This document shows positions 7,972 to 46,211 of a DNA stretch of 64,000 nt, piece after piece; the first letter of the stretch is position 1, and every line of letters starts with the position of its first letter. A program made the translations under genes and the position numbers. The notes beneath the pieces are model-generated. The model was given only the letters and a program-made list of their open reading frames with translations. It searched no databases and was not told where the DNA came from. Source of the stretch: Octopus vulgaris (lineage: Eukaryota). The stretch covers positions 76,260,001 through 76,324,000 of the forward strand of contig OX597828.1 of NCBI GenBank assembly GCA_951406725.2, written 5' to 3'.

Positions 7972-7974
<3 letters not shown>

Positions 7975-8150
7975 CGGGAAGCTTTATGAAAATAAACAAA
8001 AGACGAAGGCAGGTGGAGTACAAACAAACAATTGTATTAATATGGCGCTCAGGAATATAAATAAAACAAGTCTTTTACGTTTCGAGCCTACGCTCTTCAA
8101 CAGAAAGATACACAGAAAAGAAACACGGAGAGAAACAAGGAGGAAAAAAA
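7972..8150 (-). mobile_element. (TA)n-associated non-autonomous repeat with hammerhead-like motif (Penelope pLTR-like)
   Basis: Related segments at about 23850-23990 (-), 29470-29597 (+) and 50211-50300 (+, motif absent). All abut TA-rich or microsatellite sequence. Confidence 0.6.
8071..8108 (-). ncRNA. Minimal type-I hammerhead ribozyme-like motif, A6U core variant
   Basis: Minus strand reads TCTTT-CTGTTGA-A-GAGC-GTAG-GCTC-GAAA-CG-TA-AAAGA: 5-bp stem I, 4-bp stem II, palindromic minimal stem III (ACGT). Confidence 0.6.
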
Positions 8151-8289
8151 AAATATATATACATACATATATAACAATTGCAACGTGAAATGTGTTTATA
8201 AGCCATTTAAAACACACAAAAACAGATTCAATTCAACATTTAAATTTAATTTGCCAAAATATTTTCGTCGCTTTATATTTATATATGTA

Positions 8290-9387
8290 CCGTATATACA
8301 ATTGTAAACCAATTTTTTAGATAATTTTTTTTAATATCAAATTTATGGGTTCGACTGATATATGGCTATTTCTTTTGACAGGCTGAAATTCAAGATAGAA
8401 TCCGAAGTTCCGTATCAGCAGCAGAAACACAACTGATCTCTAAGCGAATAAAATGTAAACAGAGTGAATAACAGTAATATTACAAATTCTACACATGTCC
8501 TAGTAAATAACAAAAACCGTAAACCAGACCGCGTAGCTCTTATAAAAGAGAGCCAGAGGATGTCATGCGCAGTACAAGTAAATGTCCAGAATATGGTGCA
8601 GAGTTGTTGATCTGGAGTAGTGAATTCCCAAAGTGAGTTCTACAAGACCCCCAGGGTTCCCTGAAAGTTATCAGGTGTTCCATGTTTTTAAAAGAAATGT
8701 CGAAGAATTCCGCGCCAAAAAAGTTTGGGAACCATTGATCTAGCAATTAATTTACCGAAGTCATGCCTCTACGAATTCATACAGAGGTGTTGTTCACCGA
8801 TCGTGGTGTTTGTGGAACACGTTTCTCATCATGTATTCAGACGAGCGTATAACAGATGTGTGTATTGTATTTGGAGATGAGGAAAATATAAAGGTCGCAC
8901 GAGAACCACTGATCTAGCGATTAACTGTATGTTTTTAGTCTTATCAAAGTCATGCCTTCGTACGAATTCAGACAGTGGCGTTTGCTAGATCGTGCTGTCT
9001 GTGAAAAAAACCTTTCTCACCATGTATACAACGAGTATATGACGCATGTGTCTATTGTACTTGAAGATGAATGCAGGCTTGCAGTATATCCTGTGCATAC
9101 ATTTTAGTAATGGTGATGGCGCACCCATCAACATATGTGTAGTGCTCGCAATTAGATGGTGTTTTACTATAAGCACCAAGCATTCCACCTATAGAGCAGG
9201 CTACAGTAAGGTAGCCACGAAATTTTGTAACAGTGTTATTTATACGTACAGAATGATACGGTACATTGACCCACAAATATTGTTCTGTTGTTCGTGAAAT
9301 ACTAGGGTCGACTTTTATACGGGGTCTGTAGAAAATTCCCAATTTTTTGGCCAAAAATGAGGGCGACTATTACTCAAGTATATAAGG
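8290..9387. mobile_element. Degenerate pogo/Tigger-like non-autonomous DNA transposon with a nested MITE
   Basis: Left end TA|CCGTATATAC, right end GGCGACTATTACTCAAGTATATAAGG, plus subterminal GGGTCGAC/GGTTCGAC motifs. Confidence 0.45.
8618..8737. mobile_element. hAT (Charlie-like) MITE
   Basis: Imperfect TIRs TAGTGAATTCCCAAA / TTTGGGAACCATTG; flanks ATCTGGAG / ATCTAGCA resemble a decayed 8-bp TSD. Confidence 0.5.
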
Positions 9388-9938
9388 TGTATATTTTCAC
9401 ACAAACACACACGCACATACATACACACACACACATATATATATATATACATACATACATAATACATATTTATATAAATATATATATCGAGAGAGAGAGA
9501 GAGAGAGAGAGAAATGAAGAGAGTGAGAGAGAGAGAGAGAGCAATGCATTTAGCACTAAGCTGAAGCTAATTGTTACAACTTTCTTCGTAATGTTTAATT
9601 CTTTGTTCATAATTTCCTTCCGTTTCTTACTCTTTGAATTCCCATTAAAAACATCAACAATGTTGATGGCGTTGTCTCTGGTCACTTTCTCCTTTCCCTT
9701 GTAACAAAGAGTCCGTCAGTTTCTAATTTATCTTCCATTCCTTGTTATTAATTTGGCTCTTAAAATGGTAGCTAACAGATGTCCAAACGTCAGCGCATTA
9801 CTTCTCTCTTAAAACAATTTACAGCAGTCTTTAGACTGAAAAAATTTGAACTAAATTGATACGTGTGTTGTAAAGTTTGTGACATAACATTATTGAATAA
9901 TATAATTCAAAATATAATATAATATGGGAATATTCTAA

Positions 9939-10345
9939 GGAGGCGACTTGGTAGAAACGTTAGCACGCGCGGCGAAATGCTTAGCGGTATTTCGTCTGCC
10001 GTTACGTACTGAGTTCAAATTCCGCTGAGGTCGACTTTGCCTTTCATCCTTTCGGGGACGATAAATTAAGTACCAGTTACGTACTGGGGCCCATATAATC
10101 GACTTAATCCGTCTGTATGTCCTTGTTTGTCTCCTCTGTGTTTAGCCCCTTGTGGGTAGTAAAGAAATAGGTATTTCGTCTGCCGCTACGTTCTGAGTTC
10201 AAATTCCGCTGAGGTCGACTTTGCCTTTCATCCTTTCGGGGGTCGATGAATTAAGTACCAGTTACGCATTGGAGTTGATGTAATCGACTCATCCTCTACC
10301 CCCACCCAAATTTCCAAGGCCTTGTACTTAGAGTAAAAATAATTA
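9939..10345 (+). mobile_element. Dimeric tRNA-derived SINE (GAGTTCAAATTCCGC-GAGGTCGACTTTGCC family)
   Basis: A-box-like head, B-box-like GAGTTCAAATTCC, internal module duplicated. Many copies elsewhere in the window. Confidence 0.88.
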
Positions 10346-10554
10346 TTCGTAGTAGTATCGGTGATTGTTGTTTTCTGTTAATAACTTTATTTCCTCTCGG
10401 ATTTCAGTTCAGTACCGATCCCGATCCAGCACTAATTTTATACGATATTTTCCTCATTCTTTCGATAAGTGTTTATATTTATGCGTTGTTTCTCTTTACA
10501 CTTCACTCTTCTTGGTATAACAACTAATACTTTATTTTATACATAAAGGCAGCA

Positions 10555-10720
10555 GCAGTGGCCGGTAGAATCTTTAAGACACTCGCCAAATGACATATAC
10601 GGCATTTCGTCCATCTTTACATTCTGAGCTCAAATGTCACCGGGGCTGACTTTGCGTTTCATTCTAGTACCTCATCCCCACCGAAATTAGTGGACTTGTG
10701 CCAAAATTTGAAAGCAGTAT
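10555..10720 (+). mobile_element. Degenerate copy of the 9939 SINE family
   Basis: ggcatttcgtccatctttacattctgagctcaaatgtcacc...gactttgcgtttcat...cttgtgccaaaatttgaaa. Confidence 0.6.
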
Positions 10721-11120
10721 TGTATTCTTCTTCTTTTTTCTTTTTACCTAGTTACCACCCATCACCATACCTGCAGTTAATTATTTGACATTTAAACTCA
10801 ATCATTCAAACTTCGATGTCTGAACTAAAACAAACTCTACTTTGAACTTTTACTACAACCGGAGATATCTACATTACCATTCCTCATATTGAAACATATT
10901 ATCTTATTTTCCAGCAGCAGTAAACTTTAGAAAGAAATTCGTTCGCCACTGGTTGAACAAGCCGTCAAGCGAAAATCGAAGTCTTATTGACAATTGATGA
11001 CTTTCATTTTCCCCTTGGAAACAAATTTCCTTTCGGAAAAAGCTACATTCAAACCTCGATCGTGTTCCAGTTATGTTTTTTGCTTCTGCCTATACATATA
11101 TATATATATAAATGCATACG

Positions 11121-11198
<78 letters not shown>

Positions 11199-12207
11199 TA
11201 TATATATATATATATATATGTGTATATGTACGTATGTATTTATATACAAGAGAGAGAGAGAGAGGTGGGGAGAGACGTTTGTGAGTATGTATATCAAAGA
11301 ACTAAAGTAAAATTCAATTAACTTTAAATGTTTCAAATACAAACAATCTGTACAAACAACTTGTTTTCTTTGAACGTTTAAATTAATTTTGAAAATATCT
11401 ATCGTTACACAATCTACTTGTGCTCGCGCAGATTCACATACTTACAACACATATAAACACACAGACACGAAGGCGTACGCGCACTCGCAAGAAGCAGCGC
11501 AGCCGCTAATCGCTTTGTACATCTGCTGGAAAGACCAACTAAATCAGCTTCAACTAAGTCTACAGTACCTCCAGAAAGTGAAGGGATATATTGGGTAAAG
11601 CGGTGCATGACATACGAAAAGGCACAACTGTAATTTGTGGTCGTATATCTTAACCAATGCAAGTTTGTGTCTAAAGATCAAAGGCAGCAAACCCAAGCAC
11701 ACAATCACTTAGTCTTTGCAAATATCTATATGCATGCTTGGTTTATGTGTGTATAGTAAGGAAAGTTAATAATACGCCCATACAAACACTCATATATATG
11801 TGTGTCTCTGTGTTAATTTAATTATGCTTGCAAAATAATCATTTTCATTCTTAATTACCAATTTCTGTCAGTTGATTAAAAATGAGAAAAAAAAATTTAC
11901 AATTATTTTCAGGGAATGACGCAATCTTGTGAAGTGTTTTGCGGAAAGGAAGCCGTAAAAATATTTTCCAAACTACGGTTATATTCGTATCATTTGAGAT
12001 TCTTTTCAAATGTTTCGTTTTGCATAAAATTCATGGACTTCTCTTATTATTTTCTCTTTCTGTCTTCCGTTTATTACAACGCAACATATTCACCGTGTCA
12101 CTTTTAAAAACACACGGAAACATCCCTTTTTAAGCACGACGTTGCAGCAGTCGTGATGCTGTAAATAGACTCAGAAAACGTCGCCGTAAATTGCTTGTAC
12201 GTCAAGG

Positions 12208-12842
12208 TACATACATACATACATACATACATGCATACATACATACATACATACATACATACATACATACATACATACATGCATACATACATACATACAT
12301 ACGTACATACATACATACATACATACTTACATACATGCATGCATGCATACACACATACATACATACATACATGCATGCATACATACATACATACATACAT
12401 GCATACATACATACATACATACGTACATACATACATACATACATACTTACATACATGCATGCATGCATACACACATACATACATACATACATGCATGCAT
12501 ACATACATACATACATACATGGATACATACATACATACATACATACATACATACGTACATACGTACATACATACATACTTACATGCATGCATACATACAT
12601 ACATACATACATACATGCATACATGCATGCATGCATACACACATACATACATACATACATGCATGCATACATACATACATACATATATACATACATACAT
12701 ACATACCTATATACATTCATACATACATACATACCTATATACATACATACATACATGCATACATACATACATATATACATACATACATACATATATACAT
12801 ACATAAATACATACATACATGCATGCATACATACATACATAC

Positions 12843-12877
<35 letters not shown>

Positions 12878-12994
12878 CATACATACATATATACATACAT
12901 ACATATATATATACATAAATACATACATACATGCATACATACATACATACATACATAAATACATACATACATGCATGCATACATACATACATAC

Positions 12995-13037
<43 letters not shown>

Positions 13038-13152
13038 CATACATACATATATACATACATACATAAATATATACATACATGCATACATACATACATACAT
13101 GCATACATACATACATACATGCATACATACATACTTACATACATACATACAT
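12208..13152. repeat. About 950-bp (TACA)n array with internal 120-bp higher-order duplication
   Basis: 12301-12420 and 12421-12540 are nearly identical. Confidence 0.96.
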
Positions 13153-13195
13153 ATGCGTGTGTGAGCGTGTGCATGTATGTATATCTTTTAGCTTT

Positions 13196-13400
13196 CGTCT
13201 TTTCCTCTTTTCAGTTACTGGACTACGGCCATACTGGAGCACCACCGTAAAGTAATTTAGCTGAAAAAAATTGATCCAAGTATTTATTCTTTTAAAGCCG
13301 CGTACATATGTCCATGGGTCTTTTCTATCGAACCACTAAGTTACGGTGACGTAATCATACCAACGGTAGTTGTCAAGCGATGCTGAGGCACAAACACACA
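13196..13400 (-). mobile_element. 3' half of the 15515 SINE family
   Basis: Reverse complement similar to 15770-15960 (ggccatactggagcaccaccg, aaccactaagttacgg, ttgtcaagcga). Confidence 0.7.
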
Positions 13401-13472
13401 CACACACTATATATATATGTATATATGATTATGTATATGTATATGTATATATAAATATACATATATACACAC

Positions 13473-13504
<32 letters not shown>

Positions 13505-13552
13505 GCATTCATATATATATACATATACATATATATTTACATATATATATAT

Positions 13553-14207
13553 AAGCAATAATAACTCTTAGAGCGAGTTATAAACAGTAGCTGCAACACA
13601 TCGTGACGTATACTTGCCATTTAAATAGGGCTAACCCCTAAAGGCGGATGCTACTGTAGTTTTTATCCCCAGGAAGACACCTCCTCCAGCTGGCTATAGA
13701 CACTCTTTCTGTGCCTTATCAGTATTTGCAAAGGGAAGCCATCCTTCCCGTCTTCAACTTATGATACACACGGACTCAAGTTTCTGAGTATTGACCCGTC
13801 ATCGGCGTGTGACAATCACAGTTGTCGATGAAAAGTAGGTTCCCTTCACAAATACATATACTTTTTCCAGTATCGTAAAGACACTGATATCGAAAAAGTG
13901 TAAAGAAGCAATAATAACTCTTAGAGCGAGTTATAAACAGTAGCTGCAACACATTGTGACGTATATTTGCCATTTAAATATGCCTAACCCCTAAGGGTGG
14001 ATGCTACTGTAGATTTTAGCCCAAGGAGCCTCGAGTCCGTATGTATCATAAGTTGGAGACGGGAAGAATGGCTTTCCTTTGCAAATACTGATAGGGCACA
14101 GAAGGTGTGTCTATAGCCAGCTGGAGGAGGTGTCCTCCTGGGGCTAAAAACTACAATAGCATCCACCCTTACGGGTTAACTATGTTTAAATGGCAAATAT
14201 ACGTCAC
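13553..14207 (-). mobile_element. Hammerhead-bearing non-coding element: 353-bp unit in partial tandem plus inverted segment (retrozyme/PLE-like)
   Basis: Direct repeat starts at 13553 and 13906. 14030-14207 is the reverse complement of 13603-13780. TA-rich microsatellite on both flanks. Confidence 0.75.
13767..13811 (-). ncRNA. Type-I hammerhead ribozyme-like motif, U4C core variant
   Basis: Minus strand reads CACACG-CCGATGA-C-GGGT-CAAT-ACTC-A-GAAA-CTTGAG-TC-CGTGTG: 6-bp stem I, 4-bp stem II, GUC cleavage triplet. Stem III is the perfect palindrome CTCGAG in the inverted copy at 14030. Confidence 0.72.
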
Positions 14208-14472
14208 CATATATATATGCATACATATTCACACATGCATACATACACACATATATGTATATATATATATATATATGTTTGTATATCTAGGGCAGGTAAA
14301 ATTTCTGAGATCCATGGATGTGTTCTCTCCTGCGATCTTTCTCCCTCCCCGTCTACCAAGTCCAATCAGAAGTCTTTTGTCGGCGTGGGGCAACTACATA
14401 ATTCCATAAGTTAGAACGAGCGTTACTCTCTGTTAGGCGGTGACCTTTAACAATTGGTGCTTATTAAAACGA

Positions 14473-14672
14473 TGAGCTGGAAGAAACCCGGTTAAAATGC
14501 TTCGCGGCATATCTTCCAGTTTTACGTTATCAGTTGAAATTCAATCGATGTTAACTTCGAATTCTACCTTTCGGTGTCGATAAAATAGTTACCTGCCATG
14601 CTCTGGGGTCGAATTAATCCATTTACCGACCTTACCTAAAATTTCATGTCTTGTTCCAGTAGTAGAAACATT
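14473..14672 (+). mobile_element. Degenerate copy of the 9939 SINE family
   Basis: gagctggaagaaac...aaatgcttcgcggcat...cctttcggtgtcgataaaatag...ggggtcga. Confidence 0.6.
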
Positions 14673-14717
14673 TTAATTTTATCATTTTAAACATATCTAT
14701 TTATTTTGAATCGTGGA

Positions 14718-15045
14718 AAGTGTTTGTAAGCCATTTAAAAAAAAGTATACAAAAACCGCCAGAGTCACTACATCATTTAAATTTAATTTTTCGTCGCTTT
14801 GACACTGCGACCTGTTCACTGACAAGATTCACTGACAAGATTCACTGACAAAATTTCCTGACAAAATTCAGTGACAAAATTCCGAATAGCGAAGAAAATA
14901 TTTTGACAAATTAAATTGAAATGTTCAAGTGAATCTAACGGCTTCTGTGTTTTTAAATGGCTTATATACACCATCTACGCTGCAATTGTTTGTTTCAGCA
15001 CACGATCTCAAATCATGTTACTTGCTATGCAAGTACATCTCCATT
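14718..15045. mobile_element. Inverted-repeat element with central 13-bp tandem array and hammerhead-like half-motifs
   Basis: Left arm AAGCCATTTAAA...TTTTCGTCGCT; right arm AGCGAAGAAAATATTTTGACAAA...TTTAAATGGCTT; TTCACTGACAA(G/A)A x5 at about 14815-14879. Another arm copy at about 8175-8274. Confidence 0.7.
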
Positions 15046-15514
15046 TTGTTTTCCTAAAATCTAAAAAAGGTGAAGTCGCGTAGCTGAGTTGTTAATGTTG
15101 CACTCACGATCACAAAGTTGTGTTTCAATACCAGGACTGGATTATGCGTTGCGTTCTTGAAGAAAACATTTTAAAATTGCTCCAGTCCACCTACCTGTAA
15201 TTCAGTAACCATGGGAAGAGCTGTCATTCCGTTCACTGAAAATATTGTGATCCCGTCCGGTTATACACCTTGCAAAGTTTGTAAGCAGTGCTGTGATTTC
15301 GAGGTCTCGAGGTAGTAATGACCAAACGCATGTTGATGAAGAGGATGATGGAATATCCAAAATGCATTGTAGCAAAAGACAATGTGAAAAACTTTAATTG
15401 TGAATATGAAATACGAATATATAAAGGGAGAGATTTGAAACCAGAATATCAGTTGGTGCCTAGAATGGTGATGGATTACAATAGTTTGAAGTGATGTGAT
15501 TGAAAAGCTGATTA

Positions 15515-15644
15515 TCAACCACATGGTTCCAGGTTCAGTCCCACTGCGTGGCACCTTGGGCAACTGTCTTCTGCTAAAGCCTCGGGTCGACGAAAGTGGA
15601 TTTGGTAGATGGAAACTGAGAGAAGTCCGTCGTATATATGTATG

Positions 15645-15742
<98 letters not shown>

Positions 15743-17673: not shown

Positions 17674-17721
<48 letters not shown>

Positions 17722-18130: not shown

Positions 18131-18161
<31 letters not shown>

Positions 18162-21460: not shown

Positions 21461-21663
21461 TTAATGGACTGGCAGAATAGTTGGAACCCCGGGCAAAAAG
21501 TGCTTAGCAGAATTTCCTCTGTCTTTACGTTCCGAATTTAAGTTCCACCGAGGCCAACTTTGCCCTTGACCCTTTTGAAGTCGAGAAAATATGTACCATC
21601 TAATTACTGAGGACGATGTAACCGACGTACTCCAATGCTGGCCTTGTGCCAAAACTTGAAACT
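21461..21663 (+). mobile_element. Degenerate copy of the 9939 SINE family
   Basis: ctggcagaatagttgg...gcttagc...ccgaggccaactttgcc...ggccttgtgccaaaacttgaaac. Confidence 0.7.
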
Positions 21664-23445: not shown

Positions 23446-24002
23446 ATGAAAGTGTGAGAGAGAAGTGAGGATGAACGGATTTAGGAGGAAAAGAGAAAAG
23501 TGAAAGGAATGAGTGAAACGGTGGTTGCTAAAAGGAATAAATATAAAAACTAAAATAAGTGAAAGAGATGAACGAGAATAAGAAAGAGAGGAATGAGCAG
23601 AAGACGGCGTGTTTATGTTTGTTTGTTTGTTTGTATAAGGGAGAGATGGATCGAAATCATATTAGCGTGACTGCCATAGAGATGAGGATGGAGAAGAATG
23701 AAAAGTGAAGAACTCAATAAAAGAGGATAAAGGGGCTAGAGAGAACTATGAATATATATATGTGTGTGTGTGTGTGTGTGTAAATATATGTATATATGTA
23801 TATATATTTATACACACATACACACATATACATATATATACACACACACAAATAGGGTTCAATTGTACACAAAACAGAAGAAAAAGACAGGTTAGGGAAC
23901 AAGTAACAAGTTTATTATTATTTTGACACTAAGGAAGAACGGAGAAGGTTTTGACGTTTCGACCTTCAGCTCTCCGACAGAATGGGATGAGAAGAAATAA
24001 AT

Positions 24003-24070
<68 letters not shown>

Positions 24071-24208: not shown

Positions 24209-25234
24209 TATTCGCGTGGCATCCTGTCCTTGTTTCGTATACATTCGATCCTCTTTCCAAGAAATCTAATGCCCGTAGCTTAGTTTTTCCTTGGGGCTCG
24301 CCGTATCGGAGCGATATCAGGATTAATCAGCCGAAATTGCTAAGATGATCTGGTTCCCGACTGAAGATTAGAGGCTTCGAATGACCCATCTGTTTTTTTG
24401 TGTCGTCTCTGTGTGTTTTTGCGTTCTTGTCCCATTTTGTAATTTATATTTAATTTCTATACATATATTATTGCGGCGTAACGTTTCCCTATCTCCTATG
24501 TATGCACATTCCACCTTGTACGACGTCTTTACACACACTTTCTCTATAGTCTGTGTCTTTCTCTTTCCTTGCCTCTGATTCTTCCCCCACTCTATCACAT
24601 TTCTCCGTCTTTCTTACTTTGCACCATTATTTCTATTGCACCATTATTTCTATTCCTGTTTCTTCTCCCCTCTTTAATTCCTTCCTTCTCTCTCTCTCCC
24701 CCTTGGTGCCTTCGTCCCTTTCTTTCTCTCTTTCTTTGATTCCTTGCCCCCTGCTTTTCTTTCTCTCTCTTCCGTCCTCTCACGTGACTGCCTCCAAACT
24801 GGTCTTTCCGGTTTGACCGCTGACATGTTAACACTGTTGTCTTCGTTTGCCGCAAAGGCATTTTTCAAATACGCCAGCCAAGATAAGTTAAAAATTATCT
24901 GAAGTCGTAAGACACCCGCTGTTTTGTCCTGTTATTACTATTCTTGTTTTTTATTTCTATTTTTTGTTTCTTGTATTTATATTCATGTGGCATCCTGTCC
25001 TTGTTTCGTATACATTCGATCCTCTTTCCAAGAAATCTAAAGCCCGTAGCTTAGTTTTTTCTTTGGGGCTGGCCGTATCGGAGCGATATCAGGATTAATC
25101 AGCCGAAATTGCTAAGATGATCCGGTTCCCGACTGAAGATTAGAGGCTTCGAATGACCCGTCTGTTTTTTTGTGTCGTCTCTTTGTGTGTTTTTGCGTTC
25201 TTGTCCCATTTTGTAATTTATATTTAATTTCTAT

Positions 25235-26292: not shown

Positions 26293-26380
26293 GGTGCCGG
26301 GTTCAGTCTTACTGCGTGGCACATTGGGCACAAGGCCTTGTGAGTGGATTTGGTTGATGGAAACAGAAAGAACCCCGTCG
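26293..26380 (+). mobile_element. 5' fragment of the 15515 SINE family
   Basis: gggttcagtcttactgcgtggcacattgggc...gccttgtgagtggatttggttgatggaaac. Confidence 0.75.
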
Positions 26381-29205: not shown

Positions 29206-29261
29206 GAAGGATGTGTCTGTCTGTTTGCCTCTCCGTTTCTCTGTCTCTGTCACTCACATTC

Positions 29262-29390
29262 CACTCACAAAGGCTTTGATCATCCCCATGCTATAGTAGA
29301 AGATGCTCGCCAAACGTGCCACGCAGTGGGACTGAACCCGGAAACATGCGTTTAGAAAAGCAAGCTTCTTACCACGCAGCACTCCTGAGC
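29262..29390 (-). mobile_element. 5' part of the 15515 SINE family
   Basis: gtgccacgcagtgggactgaacccggaa...cttaccacgcagc is the reverse complement of the SINE head. Confidence 0.75.
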
Positions 29391-29594
29391 TATATATGAT
29401 ATATCAAATATTATAAATGTATTTCATATATGATATGTTTGTCTGGATGTGTGTGTGTTGTTTCTTTCTCTGTTTGTTTCTGTTGAAGTGGGTAGGCTCG
29501 AAACGTTGAAGACGTTTCACTTCCCGAGCGTTAAACTAATGCATCTGCTTGTAGTCTACACTACCTGTCTTCGTCTTTTGTTTTTGTGAATTCT

Positions 29595-29651
<57 letters not shown>

Positions 29652-30208
29652 GGAGAATTCACAAAAACAATATATATATACTACCGCAGAGTATTTCTTT
29701 CAACGATATGTGTGTGCGCGCGTGTTCGAGTATGTCTATGTCTAACGATCAATTTAATATACACGCAAAATGGGTTATGATTTCCCCTGTCCCCTGCTCT
29801 TCTATCTTCTCCATTTCTTTGAAGTATATGTTGTCATAATCATCTTCAGAAACAAACGATGAAAAAACATTAGCAAAGTTTTATTTTTTTTCTTGAATAA
29901 GAGTTTTAGCCATCATTATGTGAATGTCTCCCAGTTTTTTTTTCTTCTCGAATTCTCACCGGAGAGATAGAAATGGATTTCCTGACTAGGAACGAGGTGT
30001 TTCACTGAAAATTAGCCACAAACAGGGTAATCCTGTATGTATGTATGCATGTATGTATGTATGTATGTTTTGCTTTAAGTATGTGTTCTCATGCATCTAG
30101 TGGCCTATGTAGACATGCTCATATATATTTAAATGATAAGGTTTTACAGATTTTTACAGTTCCAGTGATGTATCGGATGTATGTACGTATGTGTGCGTGT
30201 ATGTATGT

Positions 30209-30810
30209 AAGGGTCCTTGAACGCTTTCATCAGAGATGTCTCAGAAACATTCTAAATGTTGGCTGCACCTTAAAAACTCCAGACACACAGGCCCTGAGGA
30301 CAGCTGATAACTTGAGTTTTGAGGCGATGGTGCACAAATACCGATTACGTTGGACTGGACCCATTATTAGAATGAAGGATAGCAGGATCCCTAAGCTGAT
30401 GCTATATGGGGAACTTGTGAATGGAAAGAGAACCCGGCAGAAACCAAGGCTGCGATTTAAAGTCTGTGTCAAGTCCTCATTAAAGGCCTGTGATATGCAG
30501 GAGGCCGACTGGGAAAGCAATGCTTATCATCGCCACAAACAGAGCAAACAGGTTAAGGAGGGGGTTGACACTTTTGAGAGAGCACATATTCAGCATGAAG
30601 AACTTAAGCATGCTACTCAAAAGCGCACGGCTGGTTGAGTGAATGGGAAAATCTTGGTCTGCAATGTTTGCAGTCGTGTATGCTTGTCAAGAGCAGGGAT
30701 CATTAGCCAACAACGGAGCCGCAAATGCAAAATATAAGTTAGTCCTAGAGCGCACAAAGTTCCTGAAGATTAGCAATGGTCTTACTCGGTCACGAGTGGA
30801 CAGCCATCAT
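30209..30810 (+). mobile_element. 3' fragment of an RTE-clade LINE inserted in (TATG)n
   Basis: LERFHQRCLRNIL...RLRWTGPIIRMKDSRIPKLMLYGELVNGKRTRQKPRLRFK...WE, followed after a stop by the C-terminal motif CNVCSRVCLSRAG. Confidence 0.9.
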
Positions 30811-31468: not shown

Positions 31469-31499
<31 letters not shown>

Positions 31500-32643: not shown

Positions 32644-32914
32644 GGCGGAATTTGAACTCAGAACGTAAAGACAGACGAAATACTTATTTCTTTACTACCC
32701 ACAAAGGGCTAAACATAGAGGGGACAAACATGGGCAGACAAAGGGATTAAGTCGATTATATCGACCCCAGTGCGTAACTGCTGCTTATTCAGTCGACTCC
32801 GAAAGGATGAAAGGCAAAGTCGACCTCGGCGGAATTTGAATTCAGAACGTAACCGCAGACGAGATACCGCTAAGCATTTCACTCGGCGTGTCAACGTTAG
32901 TGCCAGTTCGCTGC
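32644..32914 (-). mobile_element. Copy of the 9939 SINE family
   Basis: Reverse complement closely matches 9939-10210. Confidence 0.88.
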
Positions 32915-33662: not shown

Positions 33663-33838
33663 AGTCCGTAACAAGGTCTTTAGAAGTCTGTAACAAGGTC
33701 TTTAGAAGTCCGTAACAAGGTCTTTAGAAGTCCGTAACAAGGTCTTTAGAAGTCCGTAACAAGGTCTTTAGAAGTCTGTAACAAGGTCTTTAGAAGTCCG
33801 TAACAAGGTCTTTAGAAGTCCGTAACAAGGTCTTTAGA
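33663..33838. repeat. 22-bp minisatellite x8 (AGTCYGTAACAAGGTCTTTAGA)
   Basis: Eight head-to-tail copies with no spacers; T variant in copies 2 and 6. Confidence 0.97.
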
Positions 33839-35149
33839 AGGGCCTATCCTACTGCGAAGACTTGTAAGATACTGGAAGATGTTTGCTTTTTTGCTGACGC
33901 TATCAGAACCAATAAAATATCGTTAGCATTTATCATCTCCTCCAGAGATTCTTGGTTGATTAGAAATTGTGGACCATCCACCAAATTCCTGTGAAGATTA
34001 AACAAATGAAGTGCCAGGACTTAAAGAATTATGAAACATCTAAAGAGTTGACCAACCTGCAAAAAGAGTGGTGGACTCTTGAATCTCCTTTGAATTGTAT
34101 CTTAACAGAAGAACAGATTATAATGTAGCCCCAGAGACAATATTACTGAATGAAAAAAAAAAGTTAGTGTGCCTTTGATCTATGATGCTCGATAGGGTTT
34201 GACCTGGGGTTAAAGAACAACGATATATAAAGATTATGAGATTTTGAAATAATTATAAAAGGAAGAGAGACGCGGGAAACGAAGAGGGGACAGTTGAAAG
34301 TAAAAGGGTTTCTGTCACGTGTTACATACACCCACACATTTACGTAATAATAAAAAAAACAGAAATCACTTATACACACACACACACCAAGAGACACGCA
34401 CGCATTTATACACACCGGTGCGTAGACACACTTATACACTCATGTACACACGAACACACGTAGTCTTGGGTTCACTGACACACTCATTCATTCACACAAA
34501 TACACCGCATACGCAAACACACAAGCGCTCATTTTCACATTCACTCAACCTGTTCAAACTCACATACACGCACAAACACACGCACACACATACAGTGACG
34601 CATATGTACACACTCGTTCACAAACCCACACAAATTTATACACACATTCATTCACATTCACACTCATTCACATACACGCATCCATACATATATAAATATA
34701 TACAGATATATATACATATATAAATACATACATACATACGTACACGCACACACACACATATATATATATATGCATACATACATACACATATAACCACTCA
34801 TTTTCCCATTCAGTCATATGTTCACGCACTCTGTTATACATATACATACACAAACATTCACACACACCCACGCACACGCGCACACGCACCCTTCTGACCT
34901 GCCGCCATTTATTCCGCTCCCCATTGCCACCAACGCTGTTGTCTCTGCAACAAAAACGACGACCAACGAATTCATTGCCGATGCAAACAATGATACAAAA
35001 GGAACATCCCTGTTATTAGTGACGATTAACGATGGTGAGGCCCTCTAGTGGCTGGTTTGGACGTCGTGGGGGTTAGGACGGTGGCTACAGTGATGGCGCT
35101 GGTGCTGCTTGTGTTACAGCTATCGTGGTAGTATTACAAATATCGATGT

Positions 35150-35355: not shown

Positions 35356-35388
<33 letters not shown>

Positions 35389-35779: not shown

Positions 35780-35815
<36 letters not shown>

Positions 35816-37382: not shown

Positions 37383-37783
37383 GACGGTGAGCTGGCAGAA
37401 ACGGTAGCACGCCGGGCGAAATGCTTTGCGGTATTTCGTCAGCCGTTATGTTCTGAGTTCAAATTCCGCCGAGGTCGACTTTACTTTTCATCCTTTCGGG
37501 GTCGATTAAATAAGTACCAGTTACGCACTGGGGTCGATGTAATCGACTTAATCCGTGTGACTGTCCTTGTTTGTCCCCTCTGTGTTTAGCTCCTTGTGGG
37601 TAGTAAAGAAATAGGTATTTGGTTTGTCATTACGTTCTGAGTTCAAATTCCTCCGAGGTCGACTTTGCCTTTCATCCTTTTCAGATCGGTTAATCAAGTA
37701 CCACTTGCGTACTGTGTTCGATCGAATCGCCTGGCGCCCTCCCCCAAAATTTCGGGCCTTGTGCCTAGAGTAGAAAAGAACAT
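37383..37783 (+). mobile_element. Dimeric SINE, copy of the 9939 family
   Basis: GGTGAGCTGGCAGAAACGGTAGCACGCCGGGCGAAATGC head and duplicated GAGTTCAAATTCC module. Confidence 0.9.
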
Positions 37784-38439: not shown

Positions 38440-38994
38440 TTGCGGAATTGGTAGATCATCGGATAAAGCAGAATGTAATGCTTTATTGCAAGCAGCATGT
38501 TGTAAGTTCAAATTCTTTCAACGTTCCAGGGATTTTAAAAATAAGACACCAACCAAATAGGGAAACGAATTTATTCCACTATACAAACTCTGAGAGGAAA
38601 ACATCGTTAAGATGCCGGACAAATTGCTTAATGGCATTTCTTCCGGCTTTCAGTTCCAAATTCAAATGCTGCTGGGATCGACTTTGCTAGTCATACTTTA
38701 CGAGTACTGTAGATCGACTTACCCATCTCCTAAAGTGCTGGCCTTGTGCCAAAGCTTGAAAGCATTATTATCATAATTTGGGTGGTGAGCCTCCAGCATC
38801 GCAAGCAGGCCAGATAAATGCTTAGCAGCATTTCGTTCGTCTTTTGAGTTCTGAGATCAAATTCCGCCGAAGTCGACTTTTCCTTTTATACATTTAGGGT
38901 CGATAAAATAATAGTACCAGACGAGCACTGGGGTCGATGCAATCGACTTCACGCCTTACCACTAAATCGCTGGACTCGTGACAAATTTTGAAAA

Positions 38995-38998
<4 letters not shown>
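38440..38998 (+). mobile_element. Cluster of three degenerate copies of the 9939 SINE family ending in (TTA)n
   Basis: Repeated aaatgcttagc...caaattccgccgaagtcgacttt...gggtcgataaaata modules. Confidence 0.7.
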
Positions 38999-39070
<72 letters not shown>

Positions 39071-39071
<1 letters not shown>

Positions 39072-39352
39072 GTGAGTAAGAGAGCAGTGCATGCCATCAA
39101 AGGGAAACTGGGGTAAAATATACGAAGCCTAGTATACCCATCATGACTACCCGTCTGATAAGGGTAGACCAGGCAAGGTGATATTATATCAAGATAAACA
39201 GCACATGACCTTGGAGGTGGGAGCCAGATAGAATTTTCTTCTGGTCGAGTAACCCATCCCACTCAAAAAGCCCCTGAATAAGGGTTGTTTAAGGATGTTG
39301 AACGAAACACCCATGTTTCCATAGATGAATTATTCAAACCTCAAAGAATTCC
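39071..39352 (-). mobile_element. Unclassified element ending in a (TAA)n tail on the minus strand
   Basis: Complex sequence directly abutting (TTA)n; class inferred from the tail only. Confidence 0.4.
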
Positions 39353-39356
39353 CGTT

Positions 39357-39498
39357 TTCTTCAGTTTCCGTCAACCAAATCCACTCAAAAACTTCGGTCG
39401 GCCCGAAGCTACAGCAGAGGACACTTGCCCAAGATGCCACGCAGTGGGAATGAACTCGGAACCATGTGGTTAATAAGCAAGCTACTTACCACACAGCC
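39357..39498 (-). mobile_element. 5' part of the 15515 SINE family
   Basis: ttcagtttccgtcaaccaaatccactca...gccacgcagtgggaatgaactcggaaccatgtgg...ttaccacacagcc. Confidence 0.8.
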
Positions 39499-39921
39499 GA
39501 TTTAAACTGAATAATTACTTATGGAATGGTTAAAGTGCTTGTTTTTTTCTCCCTCAAGACTCAACTGGAGCGAAATGAAAACAGCAATGAAGGCTAATTA
39601 TGAATTGAGGTGAACTCATGAAATGAGGACACTGAGGCCGCTATGTTGAAATATTAACACTCGTCATTATTTTGTCAACTCACTTGAGATCCAACGCTTC
39701 CTCTTACTCCGCCCACCGCCTTAGTCGAAAAGCATTAAAGCAATTTTAAATACCTGACACCATATGAAACACGATCAGACAGGAGCGACAACTATACACA
39801 CATACATACATACATGCATACATACATACATACACACATACATACATACATGCATACATACATACATACATACATACATACATACATACATACATACATA
39901 CATACATACATACATACATAC

Positions 39922-40330
39922 TTACCGAGAGAAGAACAATAAACAAAAAATTTAACCGCAACCAGACAGCAGTATCCAGAGACATGAGAGGCGGAGCAGT
40001 AAATATCGCGGAAACTCCTTCACGAGAAGACAGAAACTCCTTCTGGATGAAAATCTGGAGTGAAGAGAAGGAATTTAACCAAGATGCTCTATGGCTGGAA
40101 GAAATCCGAAAAAGTTATTGCTCCCGCATTACATTCGAGAATACAACATTGATGGTGAAACTCTTGCAACTGTGATTCAGAAACTCCAGGATGGAAAAAG
40201 CATCTGGAAGAGACTTGACTGTTGGACATTTGTACAAGAAGCTAACATTCTACCAACCATATCTTATCAATCTATACCAGCAAGCTTTGATTAGGAACAG
40301 TAGCATACCACACTAGTTAGCTCTGGCAGA
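39922..40330 (+). mobile_element. Internal fragment of an R4/Dong-like LINE (region upstream of RT)
   Basis: FNRNQTAVSRDMRG...TPSREDRNSFWMKIWSEEKEFNQDALWLEEI resembles the FW..IW...N..A.W motif that precedes R4-type RT. Confidence 0.55.
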
Positions 40331-40485
40331 GACAAATTTTTTTATATTGAAAATATAAAAAAGTTCATTAAAATATTGGGCACAAAAAATTACAATACAT
40401 ATATACATTCTTTGATAATAATAATAAAATGTTAAAAACAGGTTACACAAAAACTTTTTTTGAGAAATTTTAACGAGTTTATAAA

Positions 40486-41140
40486 ATGCTACTGTTGTTT
40501 AGCCCCAGGAGACATCGTCTTAGCCGAAGAGTTATTCTATGCCGACGAAGTTATTCTATGCCGACGAAGAGAAATTGCCCTGAAACCGTACAGTCTACAA
40601 ATACTGCTTTGTGTTGGGTGAGGATGCTAACCTTCCCTGTTCTAAAATATAAGGACACAGATCGTGTGTGGTATAATCAGCTGGAGTCGATGTCTCCTGA
40701 CGCGAAGCAACAGGTGAATTTGTCTCAAACGATGTCTCCAGTAGCATTCGCCCCTAAACAGGACTGCCACATTAGGTTGGCAACAATTATTACTTTAAAG
40801 TGATGCTACAGAATATCTCTCGTTGAGATATTTAGGAATAGCATGTTTCTATTTTATTAGAGCAATGGCGGTGAGTCACTTAGAAAATTATATATGTTTT
40901 CGAATGGGTATTTAGCAGCGCCATCTCAGCCGTAGAGTTATTTTGTGCCGACGAAGGGAAATAACCCTGAAACTGTACGGTCCACGGATGCTGCTTTATG
41001 TTGTGCGGGGGTGCTAACATCGTCTGTTCGAAAATATAAGGAGACAGGTCGTGTGTCGTATAGTCAGCTGGAGACGATGTCCCATGGGGCTAAACAATAG
41101 TAGCATTCCCCCCAAAATGGGACTTCCGAATTAGGGTGGA
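40486..41140 (+). mobile_element. Second hammerhead-bearing partial tandem (~390-400-bp unit) with an inverted 5' segment
   Basis: Units start near 40520 and 40925. 40486-40520 is the reverse complement of the unit motif at about 41072-41106. The CAGCTGGAG...GGGGCTAAA...TAGCAT block is shared with 13553-14207. Confidence 0.7.
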
Positions 41141-41551
41141 AAAAATCGTTTTGTGTGTGAGTAAAATTGCATCGATATGCATATACTATATAAAAGTGGA
41201 TAGACAGGCATATACTGCACGCATTAGGTAAGGTTTGGCATAAAAAGAAGGGCTCAATATCATTTGAAGTGCATATAGTTCATTGCATAGGGTAAAATAT
41301 ACACACCTACTTATACATATATATAAATATATATATATATGTGTGTGTGTGCGTGTTTGTATGAATGTGTATGCGTGTGTATGTACGTGTGTATGTGCAC
41401 GCGTGTGTATGTGCACGCGTGTGTCTGCGAGTGTATATGTGCGTGTCTGTGAAGATAGGTCACTTGAAATGTGAACAAATCATTAGTTGTATATCTTCAG
41501 ATGGTGTTGCTCATTTTCACCGCTCTATACCACGATCACACTAAGAGATAG

Positions 41552-41582
<31 letters not shown>

Positions 41583-41710
41583 CACACAAATACGTACAGA
41601 CACACACGTGCATATATACACACCCACTCGTATACATATACATATAGGCGTATTAATACGTACGCATATAATTAACTATGCATCAAAATACCCATTTTTA
41701 TGTGTGCGTA

Positions 41711-41798
<88 letters not shown>

Positions 41799-41815
41799 CT
41801 ATATATATATATATG

Positions 41816-41871
41816 CATAAATATAGGCAACTATGTTTACGTTTGTATTTGTGTATATGCATATATGTATA

Positions 41872-41909
<38 letters not shown>

Positions 41910-41961
41910 CATATATGCACATACACACATACAAACGTAAACATAGTTGCCTATATTTATG
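41816..41961. repeat. Near-perfect 146-bp palindrome centred on (TA)n
   Basis: CATAAATATAGGCAACTATGTTTACGTTTGTAT... mirrored by ...ATACAAACGTAAACATAGTTGCCTATATTTATG; 2 mismatches in the arms. Confidence 0.92.
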
Positions 41962-42158
41962 TACAAAGGCGTGTGCATTGTTCTATTGATAACTTTAGAT
42001 TATTCATATCTTGCGGTTGGTTGCTTTGATGTTCATATGTTATTTAACGCCATTGACTACCTAACTGAGTATCAATATATATACATTTACTTACGTATAT
42101 ACACTCGCAACACACTCACACACGCATACACATGCATGTGCATATGTATGCTTGTAAG

Positions 42159-42218
<60 letters not shown>

Positions 42219-43189
42219 CTTATATGAATACATACATGAATTCCCACATATATATGGATATGTGCATAATTAAGTATGTTTTTCTGAGTTTATATGGTAA
42301 CTTAGTATGTATATATGCATATCTATAATTATGTATGTGTGCTTTTGTGTAACGCGGGGTGCGTTGAACATGACTCTTCAGGAAGCCAGGATGGAAACAT
42401 GATTACAACGATTTTTTTTTCAAAGCAGTACCTTTAAGCGTTTCAAGTTAATAGATCTTAAACCTATTATTGTACTCTTTTCCGATATTGCCTACGATTC
42501 CCATGCTGAATACTTATGCCCAGTCTACAGTTCAGATTCTTACGGCCCGTTTCTTGTGTCTACTTTGAATTTATACTTGGTAAACTTTCTCTTTCTTACA
42601 AATGAAAGCAACCTGTATGGCCAATTTAGAGTCAGCAGATCCCAGCAGACTTGGGAAGAGATATCTTCAAAGTACTATATCAATGCATCGTAGAAACTTT
42701 AAAAAATATATATATATATATATAACACTACTAGGAAATTATGACCAATTCCTACATAAACTACTTGGAATTGATTATTCTGATAAAAAATTCAAATAAT
42801 ATTCTTCCGCAGGAGAAGAGTAAAAACTTAGACTCATGCCTGACTAATACTTAGTTCACATGTAGAAGTGAACATTAGAGACGAGAAGATGTAATGTTAG
42901 TGATGCGCAGAATCTATGGATGTAACTCATTGCATTGTTTAGTAAGAAAAATAAACACTGCTGTGAGATAAATATTTTAGGAAATAGAAGAAACACTATC
43001 ATAAATAGGTGAAATATTCAATACGGAAACGATTTCGATTCAGAATAGGATGAGAGGTTGTTTCTACACTCCTGTGCGTGGGATGGAGTGTAAATATATC
43101 TATATCTATATATATATATATGCATATATGCATATATATATATATATATACAGAGAGAGTGGGGGGGGGGGAAGAATTATTTACTTGTT

Positions 43190-43520
43190 TCACTCACTAG
43201 ACCGCAACCAGGCACCGGCTTGAAAACTGTTTAGTGGAATGATTCGATCCTATACGGCTTTTGTGGAATCGCTAAGTTATGAGGACGAGGACGTACACAC
43301 AAGGGTTGTCAAGCGGTCGTTGTGGACAAATACAGACACAAAGACCCACAAGCATAGATATAAATATATACGATGAGATTCTTTCAGTTTCCGTTTACCA
43401 AATCCACACAACAAGTTTTTACACAGCCCGAGACTGTAGTAGAAGAGAATTACCCAAAGTGCCACGAAGTGGGACTAAACCCGAAAGCATTAGGTTGCGA
43501 GGCATCTGGATACTTTCATA
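43190..43520 (-). mobile_element. Degenerate copy of the 15515 SINE family
   Basis: tacttgtttca...ttgtcaagcg...tttcagtttccgtttaccaaatccac...gtgccacgaagtgggactaaaccc. Confidence 0.75.
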
Positions 43521-43585
43521 AAATACCGTCATGCCTTTAATCCCCCGTCAAGGCACTAACCACAGTAAAGCCTAATGGTTTAAAC

Positions 43586-44145
43586 CATGTGTTCTTAACC
43601 ATTTTTTTAATCTATAGACTCTTTTTATTACTAATTTATTCTGGAGGACCCCATAACCTTTCAGTTTTAAAAAAATTAGTGGAGCAAGAATACACACAAA
43701 AACGAAAAGTGTAGCTGAAGAGGTCACAGATGTGTGACGAAAGATTTCCGGACAATGGACATGAGTTAGAATAATAACAGTAATAAACGAGTGAAGAACA
43801 AATATATTGTGCGTGAGTTTATTTGGCAAAAAAAGAGAAGCAAGTGGCCATCCTGAAATACAACAATATTTTAAAAACTAGTTTTTAAGAAACTTTTTAT
43901 GAAATTCTGATTTTCTTTTTCTCCCATTAACTTGTGTGTTTAAAATTAACTTATGCTTGTAAAGTGTTACAAAAAGAAACTCAGTTGTTTCTTGTAAGAC
44001 ATACCAATTACATCAAAAGCAACAATTTTTTCAGGCGCCCTTAACATACTGTTGTGGATGCTCAATTTACTAAATTGTAGCGTGGAACCTACAAAATATC
44101 ATATGGAGCATCAGGGACCATATAGGACCTGGCTGAGAACTACCG
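43586..44145. mobile_element. hAT (Charlie-like) non-autonomous element
   Basis: Imperfect TIRs CATGTGTTCTTAACC / GGCTGAGAACTACCG; 8-bp TSD GTTTAAAC (43578-43585) / TTTTAAAC (44146-44153). Confidence 0.65.
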
Positions 44146-44551
44146 TTTTAAACCAACTCGAAAATTGAATGATGGCAGACAAATGTTGAACATAGTGAGG
44201 CAAAGTGAGATACAGAATAAGAAACGAGGTCATTTAATCTCCTTTAGCATTCAAATGAACCTGTCAAATGTAAAACTTATTTGTCCTCATATTTCGAATT
44301 AATCGTACATAATCTCGTAGCTCCGAGATTTTGATTATCCGATTGTTTATTTTTAACATGACACCGTAGGGAGGTGTGAGGGGCTGATTCTGGTTGGTTT
44401 CAAAATATAACGGGTAGAATATTTGAGCAGCATATGGGTGGTATACATGCTAACGGACTAAATTGAATTTACTAGAGAACATGTATGCATATTGATATGC
44501 ACTCGCAAGTGTCTATGTGTGTGCGTGCGTGTGTGTGTGCGTGCATGCATG

Positions 44552-44603
<52 letters not shown>

Positions 44604-44689
44604 TATACATATATATATATATTTATATATAAATATATGCATATATCTTGTTATATATAAATATGTATGAAGTATATATATATATATGC

Positions 44690-44747
<58 letters not shown>

Positions 44748-44759
44748 GTGTGTGTGATT

Positions 44760-46160
44760 GTGTATAGAAGAATATATTAATAAAAGGAATTCCAACCTTG
44801 TCTGATTTTCACGTTTTATTTACAATCTTATAATGATATATTATAAGATAATATATTATAATAGAATAAAATAAAATAGTAGAATATTAAATGTTCATTC
44901 TGATTGAACTAGTACTTTCATGCATTAAATTCTGCAATCTTAGGGTTCATGTAGTAGTGGTGACAGTCATGCTTCACAATTTTTGACTGTAGCAAGATTA
45001 TTGATTCTGTGCTATAAATACAGCTGGGTAGGCTCCAGAGTGCTAGGTTTTGCAAGCTGTATTCTGACCAATCAGTGTGTAGTATCACTCAATTACTTAG
45101 GCTGATTGGTTGGTTGAGCTGATTGGTTTAGGCGTCACGCTTTGTTGGACATGTCAAGAGTCCTGTATCTTGACCCTGGCCGAAGCAGCAATTGTTGGGT
45201 TATTTTTAGAAATGTTGTAAATAGCCTTTGTCAGAGATTTTTATATTTTTATATTTCAATTGTCATCATCATCATTGTCAGCACCTTAATTATTGTTGCT
45301 AGTGGTGATGGTGGTGGCAATAGAACTTTTAACCCTAAATAAGATAATTTTCCTGCTATCTTCATCTTGATCACCTTTAGTATTGTTGTTGTTGTTAGTG
45401 GTCATGGTCGTAGCAGTAGAAGTAGTACCTCTAAGTATTATTATTATTATTGCTTATTTAGCTTGGGTTCGAATTTATCAATAAAATTCTTTTCTCTGAT
45501 TTTCCTCTCGATTTCACTTGGGCTGTGTAATTTGTAGAACGGAAATATTATATACATTTTCCGGCCACATGTTGCTAGGTGGTTACTCAAAGGTATCTGA
45601 CGGACCTCTGGGTCTCTAATCTGTTGCCGGTGTACACATGAACGTTCTGATAGTGCGTTTCCCGTCTGACCTACATATATTTCTTCACAATTTGGGCATT
45701 TGATGCAGTAAATAAAATTTCTGCTTTTGCAGTTCATATTCGCGTTTGTGAATATTTTTCCGGTTTTTGTGTTTATATATTGGCCGGTATGTATGAATTG
45801 GCATGTGCCACACCGGCAATCATTGCATTTAGATACAGTGAATGTTTGGTCTTTGTTGCTAAGGTCAAATTTTGCCTTTGTTAGTAATTTTTTCAAGTTT
45901 TTAGGCTGTCTTTTACTAAGCACCATAGCTCGATCCGTGATTATGTCTTTTAATTCATTACTTTGGGCAATGATTGGTAGGTTTGCTTTGGCAATCTTGA
46001 AGATATTCTGGTGACATGGGTTGTGTGTCACTATGAATGGTATGACTTGTTCTTGTTTTCCTCTTCCTTGGGTTGTCCTAAGTTGTTGTATGGGTATTTT
46101 TATAGCCCGTTGTATGCCATTTTCTATAAGTAGAGATGGGTATTTTTGTTTGAGCAAAAA
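44760..46160 (-). mobile_element. 5'-truncated Penelope-like element (Neptune-type), ORF end plus 3' non-coding region
   Basis: GIY-YIG ORF followed by about 690 bp non-coding DNA with a hammerhead-like motif, ending at a (TG)/(TA)n tract. Confidence 0.8.
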
Positions 46161-46211
46161 CGTATCACCAGTATTAAAGCATAAAAAGCATTCTAAATGC
46201 CCTGAAATCAC
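45447..46211 (-). CDS. Penelope-like element polyprotein C-terminus: post-RT linker, Cys-rich motif and GIY-YIG endonuclease (partial)
   Basis: LLKQKYP...IPFIVTHNP...KRQPKNLKKLL...CNDCRCGTC...CKSRNFIYCIKCPNCEEIYVGQT...ER..H...H...RKIREKNFIDKFEPKLN. The first ~16 codons are antisense of the adjacent transposon. Confidence 0.88.
   Translation of the reverse strand: MISGHLECFLCFNTGDTFLLKQKYPSLLIENGIQRAIKIPIQQLRTTQGRGKQEQVIPFIVTHNPCHQNIFKIAKANLPIIAQSNELKDIITDRAMVLSKRQPKNLKKLLTKAKFDLSNKDQTFTVSKCNDCRCGTCQFIHTGQYINTKTGKIFTNANMNCKSRNFIYCIKCPNCEEIYVGQTGNALSERSCVHRQQIRDPEVRQIPLSNHLATCGRKMYIIFPFYKLHSPSEIERKIREKNFIDKFEPKLNKQ

Follow-up and report, generated by a model that had tools for sequence, protein, structure and literature searches.

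We analysed a window of 64,000 nucleotides (nt) from the 2.8-Gb, microsatellite-rich genome of Octopus vulgaris (G000:C15:76260001-76324000), which harbours eight hammerhead ribozyme motifs with altered catalytic cores. The motifs lie in Penelope-like elements (PLEs) and in a retrozyme-like superfamily that is likely moved by PLE enzymes. All eight core strings reported in an initial annotation of this DNA were recovered, each at or within 40 nt of the place given; for motifs on the minus strand, that place marked the low end of the ribozyme and not the start of the core. The cores start at 8103, 13805, 14819, 23980 and 44944 on the minus strand and at 29480, 40561 and 40948 on the plus strand. 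They sort into four lineages, termed B (8071, 29476 and 23949), D (14788), E (44905) and A/C (40561 and 40948; 13767). Inverted segments on the 5' side had been noted at three loci, and all three were verified (14030-14210, 14905-14985 and 40485-40520). The features of these lineages are as follows, with positions counted from the first letter of the window, RT standing for reverse transcriptase and pLTR for pseudo-long terminal repeat:

7972-8157, minus strand: family B copy that ends at (TA)n, a GIY-YIG PLE reduced to its 3' end by 5' truncation
8071-8108, minus strand: minimal hammerhead of family B, core CUGUUGA (A6U) at 8103-8097, predicted cut after 8076
8173-8272, minus strand: family D fragment, truncated inside stem II and without a core, adjoining the B copy
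13554-14028, minus strand: family C insertion that ends at (TA)n and comprises a 353-nt unit and 121 nt of the preceding one
13767-13811, minus strand: family C hammerhead, core CCGAUGA (U4C) at 13805-13799, C.A at 10.1/11.1, predicted cut between 13773 and 13772
14030-14210, plus strand: inverted, partial copy flanking the family C insertion on its 5' side
14706-14830, minus strand: family D copy, 3' end of a third PLE, core GUGAACA (G3-C8) at 14819-14813, stem II intact
14815-15040, plus strand: five 13-nt repeats (14815-14882) and an inverted family D copy, 5' side
23885-24005, minus strand: old, decayed family B copy, core CUGUCGG (A6U plus a private A9G), stem II broken
29450-29596, plus strand: family B copy, core CUGUUGA at 29480-29486, stem II partly mismatched, ending at (TA)n
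40485-40520, minus strand: inverted 36-nt segment flanking the family A insertion on its 5' side
40541-41150, plus strand: family A partial tandem, unit of 387 nt, cores CCGACGA (U4C) at 40561 and 40948
44728-46160, minus strand: family E, 5'-truncated copy of a 4,265-nt PLE, with a frame for RT thumb and GIY-YIG ending at 45447, then the pLTR
44905-44949, minus strand: family E hammerhead in the pLTR, core CCUAAGA in this copy, U.U at 10.1/11.1
50216-50297, plus strand: family B 3' stub without ribozyme

A whole type I fold had been ascribed to every motif. Type I folds with palindromic stem III were indeed found for the families, but the window copies at 14788, 40561 and 23949 are damaged. 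In the 14788 copy, a 13-nt deletion removed stem III together with the 3' strand of stem I, and stem II of the 40561 copy is damaged; the second family A hammerhead (40942-40988) is complete, with a near-palindromic stem III. When a hammerhead descriptor was applied to the window alone, the motifs scored no better than shuffled sequence, and their significance must therefore come from genome-wide families. An Rfam search of the window with expectation values (E) up to 10 gave 551 matches; no hammerhead was among the 150 listed, which were microsatellite-driven matches to microRNAs and small nucleolar RNAs. A general repeat search was also dominated by microsatellites.

Genome-wide, the family patterns gave 24,779 (B), 1,392 (D) and 1,164 (A/C) matches, compared to none for the reversed patterns. 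Best-match samples are skewed to the window's own variant, and core frequencies were therefore taken from pattern samples with free core positions, which comprise the first 30-100 matches, on contigs C1-C2, with bases counted by hand. Family E was sampled by best matches only. Canonical CUGANGA...CGAAACGU motifs occurred 16,444 times; at least two abundant families of minimal hammerheads with canonical cores make up most of the first 100 of these matches. Measured against the consensus core (CUGANGA...GAAA...UH), the families depart by A6U in B, by a G3-C8 pair in D and by U4C in E, A and young C, while G5, A9, GAAA and UH are retained across the variant-core families. The three-stem architecture of type I is present as stems in copies of B, D and E and is supported by covariation in the A/C superfamily.

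Near copies of family B are 94-99% alike and terminate at (TA)n. Extended copies run upstream into RT and GIY-YIG frames, and the endonuclease frame lies about 735 nt ahead of the core. Family B is thus the truncated 3' end of a PLE. Both frames, obtained from broken copies, gave weak Pfam hits and 29% identity to the family E protein (E-value 6e-30). With a pattern leaving positions 6, 7 and stem II free, position 6 was U in 94, A in 4 and C in 2 of the first 100 of the 24,779 matches; among the 94 with U6, position 7 was U in 37, A in 27, C in 21 and G in 9. When 30 loci with divergent flanks across subfamilies were anchored on stem II, with positions 3-7 free, C3 (30/30), U4 (29/30), G5 (30/30) and U6 (29/30) were nearly invariant. 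In a tree built with positions 6-7 masked, the states of position 7 track subfamilies. An alternative register with canonical A6 (core UNGAAGA) was ruled out by inspection, as it breaks stems I and II. A canonical A6 motif with the same stem II as family B is common among the 16,444 canonical matches and also has U4C copies; this suggests that A6 may be the ancestral state for family B. Contig sets under three other organism labels contain the B ribozyme as well, with a difference listed at position 7 and none at position 6, a weak hint from an incomplete table.

In family D copies, stem I (UUUGUCA/UGACAAA) is accompanied by the core GUGAACA with an extra G, by a stem II of 5 bp with GAAA, and by a stem III that is palindromic; an intact copy folds at a z score of -3.0. 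In the first 100 of the 1,392 matches to a core-free pattern, GUGAACA occurred 84 times, G3 99 times and C8 95 times; C3 did not occur. Loop II differs between subfamilies and stem II is unchanged. Extended copies contain an internal (CATA)n and run on to a GIY-YIG frame that lies about 990 nt upstream. This (CATA)n, which precedes the ribozymes, belongs to the 3' region of the element itself (loci L186-L215), so that the microsatellite association is in part cargo and not target. The family D protein comprises an RT thumb plus GIY-YIG just below the Pfam cut-off; the core RT was not recovered from this genome. A supposed 3,455-nt family D tandem was recognised as a local duplication that lacks an open reading frame (ORF). 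Among 14 D-related PLE loci in metagenome contigs, three carry a hammerhead 260-280 nt behind the protein match, with the cores CUGACGA (C-G), UUGAAAA (U-A) and CGGACGA (C-G, with G4); ten, several of them too short, had no hammerhead and one had a poor, distant match. Thus, the 3-8 pair covaries among D and its relatives, with three Watson-Crick forms (C-G, U-A and G-C) in one clade.

Family E is a 4,265-nt unit flanked by 801-nt pLTRs that are 99.75% alike. A single frame of 748 amino acids gave RVT_1 and GIY-YIG hits above the Pfam cut-offs, and the core is CCGAAGA (U4C) in 30 of 32 best-match rows. An upstream frame of 458 amino acids without a Pfam hit is separated by a stop from the frame for RT and endonuclease (locus L151:3612-4988 and 1365-3611, minus strand), and two other copies have two extra bases just before that stop; a two-ORF or frameshift layout is possible. 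In the window, a Tc1/mariner-like frame (46015-46738, plus strand) directly adjoins the family E copy at its truncated 5' end.

The hammerheads of B, D and E thus lie 500-1,000 nt behind the GIY-YIG frames of three different PLEs, and the window copies are what 5' truncation has left of these elements, with their ends at (TA)n. In all three, RT is followed by a C-terminal GIY-YIG endonuclease, as in endonuclease-bearing (EN+) PLEs, and the structural marks of PLEs (a hammerhead within a pLTR or partial tandem, truncation at the 5' end, inversions) are present, in E by its pLTRs and in B and D by truncated and inverted copies. A CX2-5CxxC linker is visible before GIY-YIG in the B, D and E proteins; such a linker is described in part of PMC8557442 as a mark of the Neptune/Nematis clades. 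The initial annotation had considered all of the elements to be non-coding and retrozyme-like, with units of about 350-390 nt. This applies to A and C, which are closed units without an ORF, but not to B, D and E, whose longer copies reach RT/GIY-YIG ORFs: no closed non-coding unit exists for B and D, as their extended copies enter PLE ORFs, and these two are ends of autonomous PLEs. A fourth PLE family, near 35,756,160 on C1 (locus L229:1312; also L007), has 38-41% protein identity to E; the hammerhead at its end combines a U3-A8 core (UUGAAAA) with a CCGG palindrome.

The units of A (387 nt) and C (352-353 nt) are 59% alike over 388 columns (E 7e-10). Together with the 1,164 pattern matches, this indicates that they are subfamilies of one larger superfamily and not, as first proposed, separate families. 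The unit closes on itself with head-to-tail junctions and contains no ORF, so that the traits of a retrozyme (a non-coding unit of 150-450 nt, a type I hammerhead and tandem arrangement) are all present. Among 30 family C loci, 19 are longer than one unit and 12 carry an inverted segment (hand count). The 3' ends of 29 of these loci fall at unit positions 299-309 (18) or 349-353 (11), about 45 nt apart and far from the predicted cut at unit position 134/135. These two fixed ends match the two RT start sites with an optional tail that parts of PMC11167929 and PMC8557442 describe for PLEs. On C2 (14086528-14089369, locus L249), nine family C units of 352 nt stand head to tail, with 0-5 differences among the eight units compared. 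Circular folds of young C units reached z scores of -7.8 and -4.9. In 42 distinct A/C rows, 88.3% of the stem cells were paired, compared to 73.9% in shuffled rows and 19-53% in slid controls; both sides had changed in each of the 11 pairs of stem I and in 2 of the 4 pairs of stem III, and two-sided changes occurred in 132 cells, compared to 40 (shuffled) and 9-38 (slid).

Such a pattern could also arise if PLE enzymes moved A and C from linear read-through transcripts of tandem arrays, without a circular stage. The nine-unit array with its 352-nt period exists, a linear multimer would explain copies of more than one unit equally well, and the insertion ends differ from the predicted cut site. 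However, covariation across the whole hammerhead and the self-paired circular fold of A/C resemble the mussel, coral and axolotl retrozymes for which circles were demonstrated (in part of PMC7229834), and we consider a purely linear route improbable. As to the enzyme, the ORF at 45447-46238 had been proposed as the driver of A/C. This assignment was not borne out: the pLTR of that element lacks similarity to A/C (best E 0.1), and at least three other PLE families are present. PLE protein hits occurred within 1.5 kb of 6 of 95 A/C loci, none of them joined to the unit and one of them from the fourth PLE family; these proteins were rejected as partners, being separate insertions without shared linking sequence. 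The insertion marks suggest that A/C is mobilised by a PLE enzyme.

U4C was found in 34 of 38 best-match C rows and 32 of 40 A rows, and canonical U4 in 70 of the first 100 of the 1,164 superfamily matches. Young C is nested among U4 subfamilies, and the starred branches of the tree force at least four changes, some of them CpG decay. Judged from this tree, U4C is a recurrent subfamily trait and not a mark of the superfamily, and it probably arose at least twice. Among the 40 family A rows, C4 was changed to T in 8 and G5 to A in 7; this symmetry indicates CpG deamination, and canonical-looking A copies are thus products of decay.

These counts bear on the explanation that the variant cores in general represent decay of canonical hammerheads in dead copies. 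For two strings, this is the case: CCUAAGA, found in 1 of 32 family E rows, is decay private to the window copy, and so is the G9 of CUGUCGG, found in 2 of 23 related rows that are otherwise family B. Moreover, canonical cores are common in the genome, with the 16,444 matches and 70 of 100 sampled motifs of the A/C type. Yet A6U, G3-C8 and U4C are the majority states of their families, including copies that are 94-99% alike, and in family A it is the canonical-looking copies that bear the deamination mark. The family counts thus refute decay for B, D, E, A and young C, and as a general account it is extremely improbable. The initial claim that variant cores are family traits therefore stands for A6U, G3-C8 and U4C but not for CCUAAGA and G9. 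A canonical consensus, named as the finding that would contradict it, was seen in most of the sampled members of the A/C superfamily but not in B, D, E, A or young C. The annotation was also right that a search for canonical CUGANGA would overlook the variant families.

Taken together, we conclude, with a probability of roughly two in three, that the motifs are type I hammerheads of PLEs and of a retrozyme-like family likely moved by PLEs, in which A6U, G3-C8 and U4C became fixed family-wide, and that they are likely slow ribozymes, predicted to cut as dimers and possibly aided by protein. A tandem transcript would bring two hammerhead motifs together, and their palindromic stems III would pair with each other; the predicted duplexes amount to -17.8 (A), -12.1 (C), -6.8 (E), -3.7 (B) and -2.6 (D) kcal/mol. 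The RNA would then be cut to unit length and, in A/C, the unit RNA closed into a self-paired circle. The PLE RT/endonuclease would start at either of two internal sites, away from the cut, and the RT would copy more than one unit into a nick in (TA)n. The G3-C8 variant keeps the 3-8 pair and should be active. According to part of PMC11167929, a PLE hammerhead that depends on the PLE protein regains part of its cleavage in the C3G/G8C double mutant, and the 3-8 swap is described as the sole rescuing swap in a pairwise mutant scan (part of PMC9901934). U4C ribozymes should be slower; U4C lowers activity yet functions in vivo in a viroid (part of PMC3088659). Activity of A6U is the least certain of the three.

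Several points weigh against this conclusion. The stem covariation proposed as a check was strong in A/C but little within families: almost absent in the stems of B and D and slight in E. Even in A/C, the number of covarying pairs alone was not above that of shuffles (91 of 500), stem II was held constant by the search pattern, 30 of 42 rows are without the standard 10.1-11.1 pair, and the old A unit folded as a circle no better than shuffles (z -0.9). Comparisons with the B, D and E ends revealed no PLE whose pLTR is homologous to A/C. In the family B tree, the few copies with A6 do not group in a single clade, so that the origin of U6 is not polarised, and the sameness among B and D copies can reflect a few master copies. 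In the scan cited above, activity was low for every single or double mutant of the CUGA region apart from the 3-8 swap, which counts against A6U and U4C. PLE insertion in vitro did not require hammerhead cleavage (part of PMC11167929), Naiad PLEs thrive without canonical hammerheads (part of PMC8557442), and 8 of 9 frog retrozyme dimers were uncleaved (part of bioRxiv 10.64898/2026.07.22.740005).

Part of this evidence would equally fit motifs that no longer cut, namely B (A6U) and perhaps the U4C motifs, the fold being kept for protein binding or RT positioning or as a passenger of a successful PLE lineage. A6 and U4 mutants were weakly active in the scan (PMC9901934), a natural A6C is slow (PMC3088659), and in the lizard study showing cleavage to be dispensable for insertion, RNA-seq of the PLE gave no reads beginning at the cut site (PMC11167929), each as described in the parts available; the little stem covariation in family B agrees with this explanation as well. 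However, the B subfamilies vary only at the free position 7, with C3, U4, G5 and stems I-III constant, as in a hammerhead core under constraint, and the 3-8 pairing is preserved through swaps in other PLE lineages of this genome. Loss of cleavage is therefore unlikely in our view, and we retain the reading of slow, family-wide ribozymes. More tentatively, the rules for PLE hammerheads may be relaxed, propped by the PLE protein and by dimer pairing. A6U, a change that disables a free hammerhead, would then be active in nature and define the hammerhead family with the highest abundance among those sampled in this genome, where separate PLE lineages would each have settled on a different core (A6U, G3-C8, U3-A8 and U4C). 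We regard this extension as conceivable though doubtful; if it is true, CUGANGA censuses would overlook more than half of the PLE hammerheads in such genomes.

The window contains further repeats and frames. A dispersed family of 270-390 nt with an internal 120-nt duplication, whose copies are 68-90% alike, is SINE-like (short interspersed element) by appearance; a second short dispersed family has copies that are 68-88% alike. The frames at 46015-46738 and 50655-51158 (both plus strand) are presumably pieces of Tc1/mariner transposases, and the frame at 30009-30638 (plus strand) is one that we take to be the C-terminus of an RTE-type LINE (long interspersed element) protein. No Pfam hit was obtained for the two Tc1/mariner-like frames scanned (E 0.001) or for the frame at 30009-30638.

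9943-10339, 14469-14625, 21498-21626, 32644-32911, 37386-37776, 38784-38957, 54812-54978 and 55347-55524: copies of the 270-390-nt repeat
15509-15632, 26293-26380, 29236-29380, 39356-39497, 43370-43497, 52465-52551, 57242-57343 and 63005-63066: copies of the second short repeat
33663-33840: eight repeats of a 22-nt unit, 97% alike
24209-24439 and 24980-25213: 234-nt local duplication, 96% alike

The A6U-type pattern (24,779 matches, about 94% U6 as sampled) outnumbers the canonical motifs (16,444), and standard descriptors thus undercount hammerheads in this genome. Claims of PLEs without hammerheads merit rechecking with wider cores. Moreover, the genome offers young families at high copy number whose cores differ in single positions, along with canonical sister families, and thus allows a direct test of whether hammerhead cutting is necessary for the spread of PLEs. 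In the literature searched, which covered the text of the sources available, no natural A6U or G3-C8 family was found, only engineered swaps and a twister paper with 'A6U'; priority is therefore uncertain. What appears new are family-wide A6U and G3-C8 cores at high copy number, whereas PLE hammerheads, retrozymes, U3-A8 and U4C were already known. Minimal PLE hammerheads including U3-A8 (PMC4209133; review PMC6765202) and retrozymes as non-autonomous PLE derivatives (bioRxiv 10.64898/2026.07.22.740005) are in print, according to the parts of these sources available.

The minimal hammerheads of metazoan PLEs described in the available part of PMC4209133 resemble those of B, D and E in their type I fold with an extra base between 9 and 10.1, their palindromic stem III of the ACGU/AAUAUU type, and their position behind an RT-GIY-YIG ORF with many solo truncated copies. 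The cores in its representative alignment are CUGANGA, U3-A8 or U3 with G8, unlike A6U in B, G3-C8 in D and U4C with U.U at 10.1/11.1 in E. A/C resembles the animal non-LTR (long terminal repeat) retrozymes (parts of PMC7229834 and bioRxiv 10.64898/2026.07.22.740005) in its non-coding unit of 350-390 nt, as in mussel, its type I hammerhead with a 6-bp stem I, a bulge and an upper stem, its tandem arrays and dispersed monomers, its self-paired circular fold and its co-occurrence with PLEs. In contrast to these retrozymes, A/C has U4C in its youngest and several other subfamilies, C.A at 10.1/11.1, and a long palindromic stem III with 6-8 nt between A15.1 and U16.1, and its circles are only predicted. 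Tolerated natural core changes (U3-A8, A6C, U10.1-U11.1 and U4C in a viroid) are described as rare in the part of PMC3088659 available, which names neither A6U nor a natural G3-C8; here, variants define families of 10^3 to 10^4 copies. The U.U at 10.1/11.1 is itself a known natural variant (parts of PMC3088659 and PMC7229834). Finally, the Poseidon element PAc of Anolis (part of PMC11167929) resembles the window families in its pLTR-borne hammerhead, in its AT-rich targets and in an optional 3' tail that results from two RT start sites. Its core is canonical and C3G/G8C was engineered into it, whereas family D carries this swap naturally.

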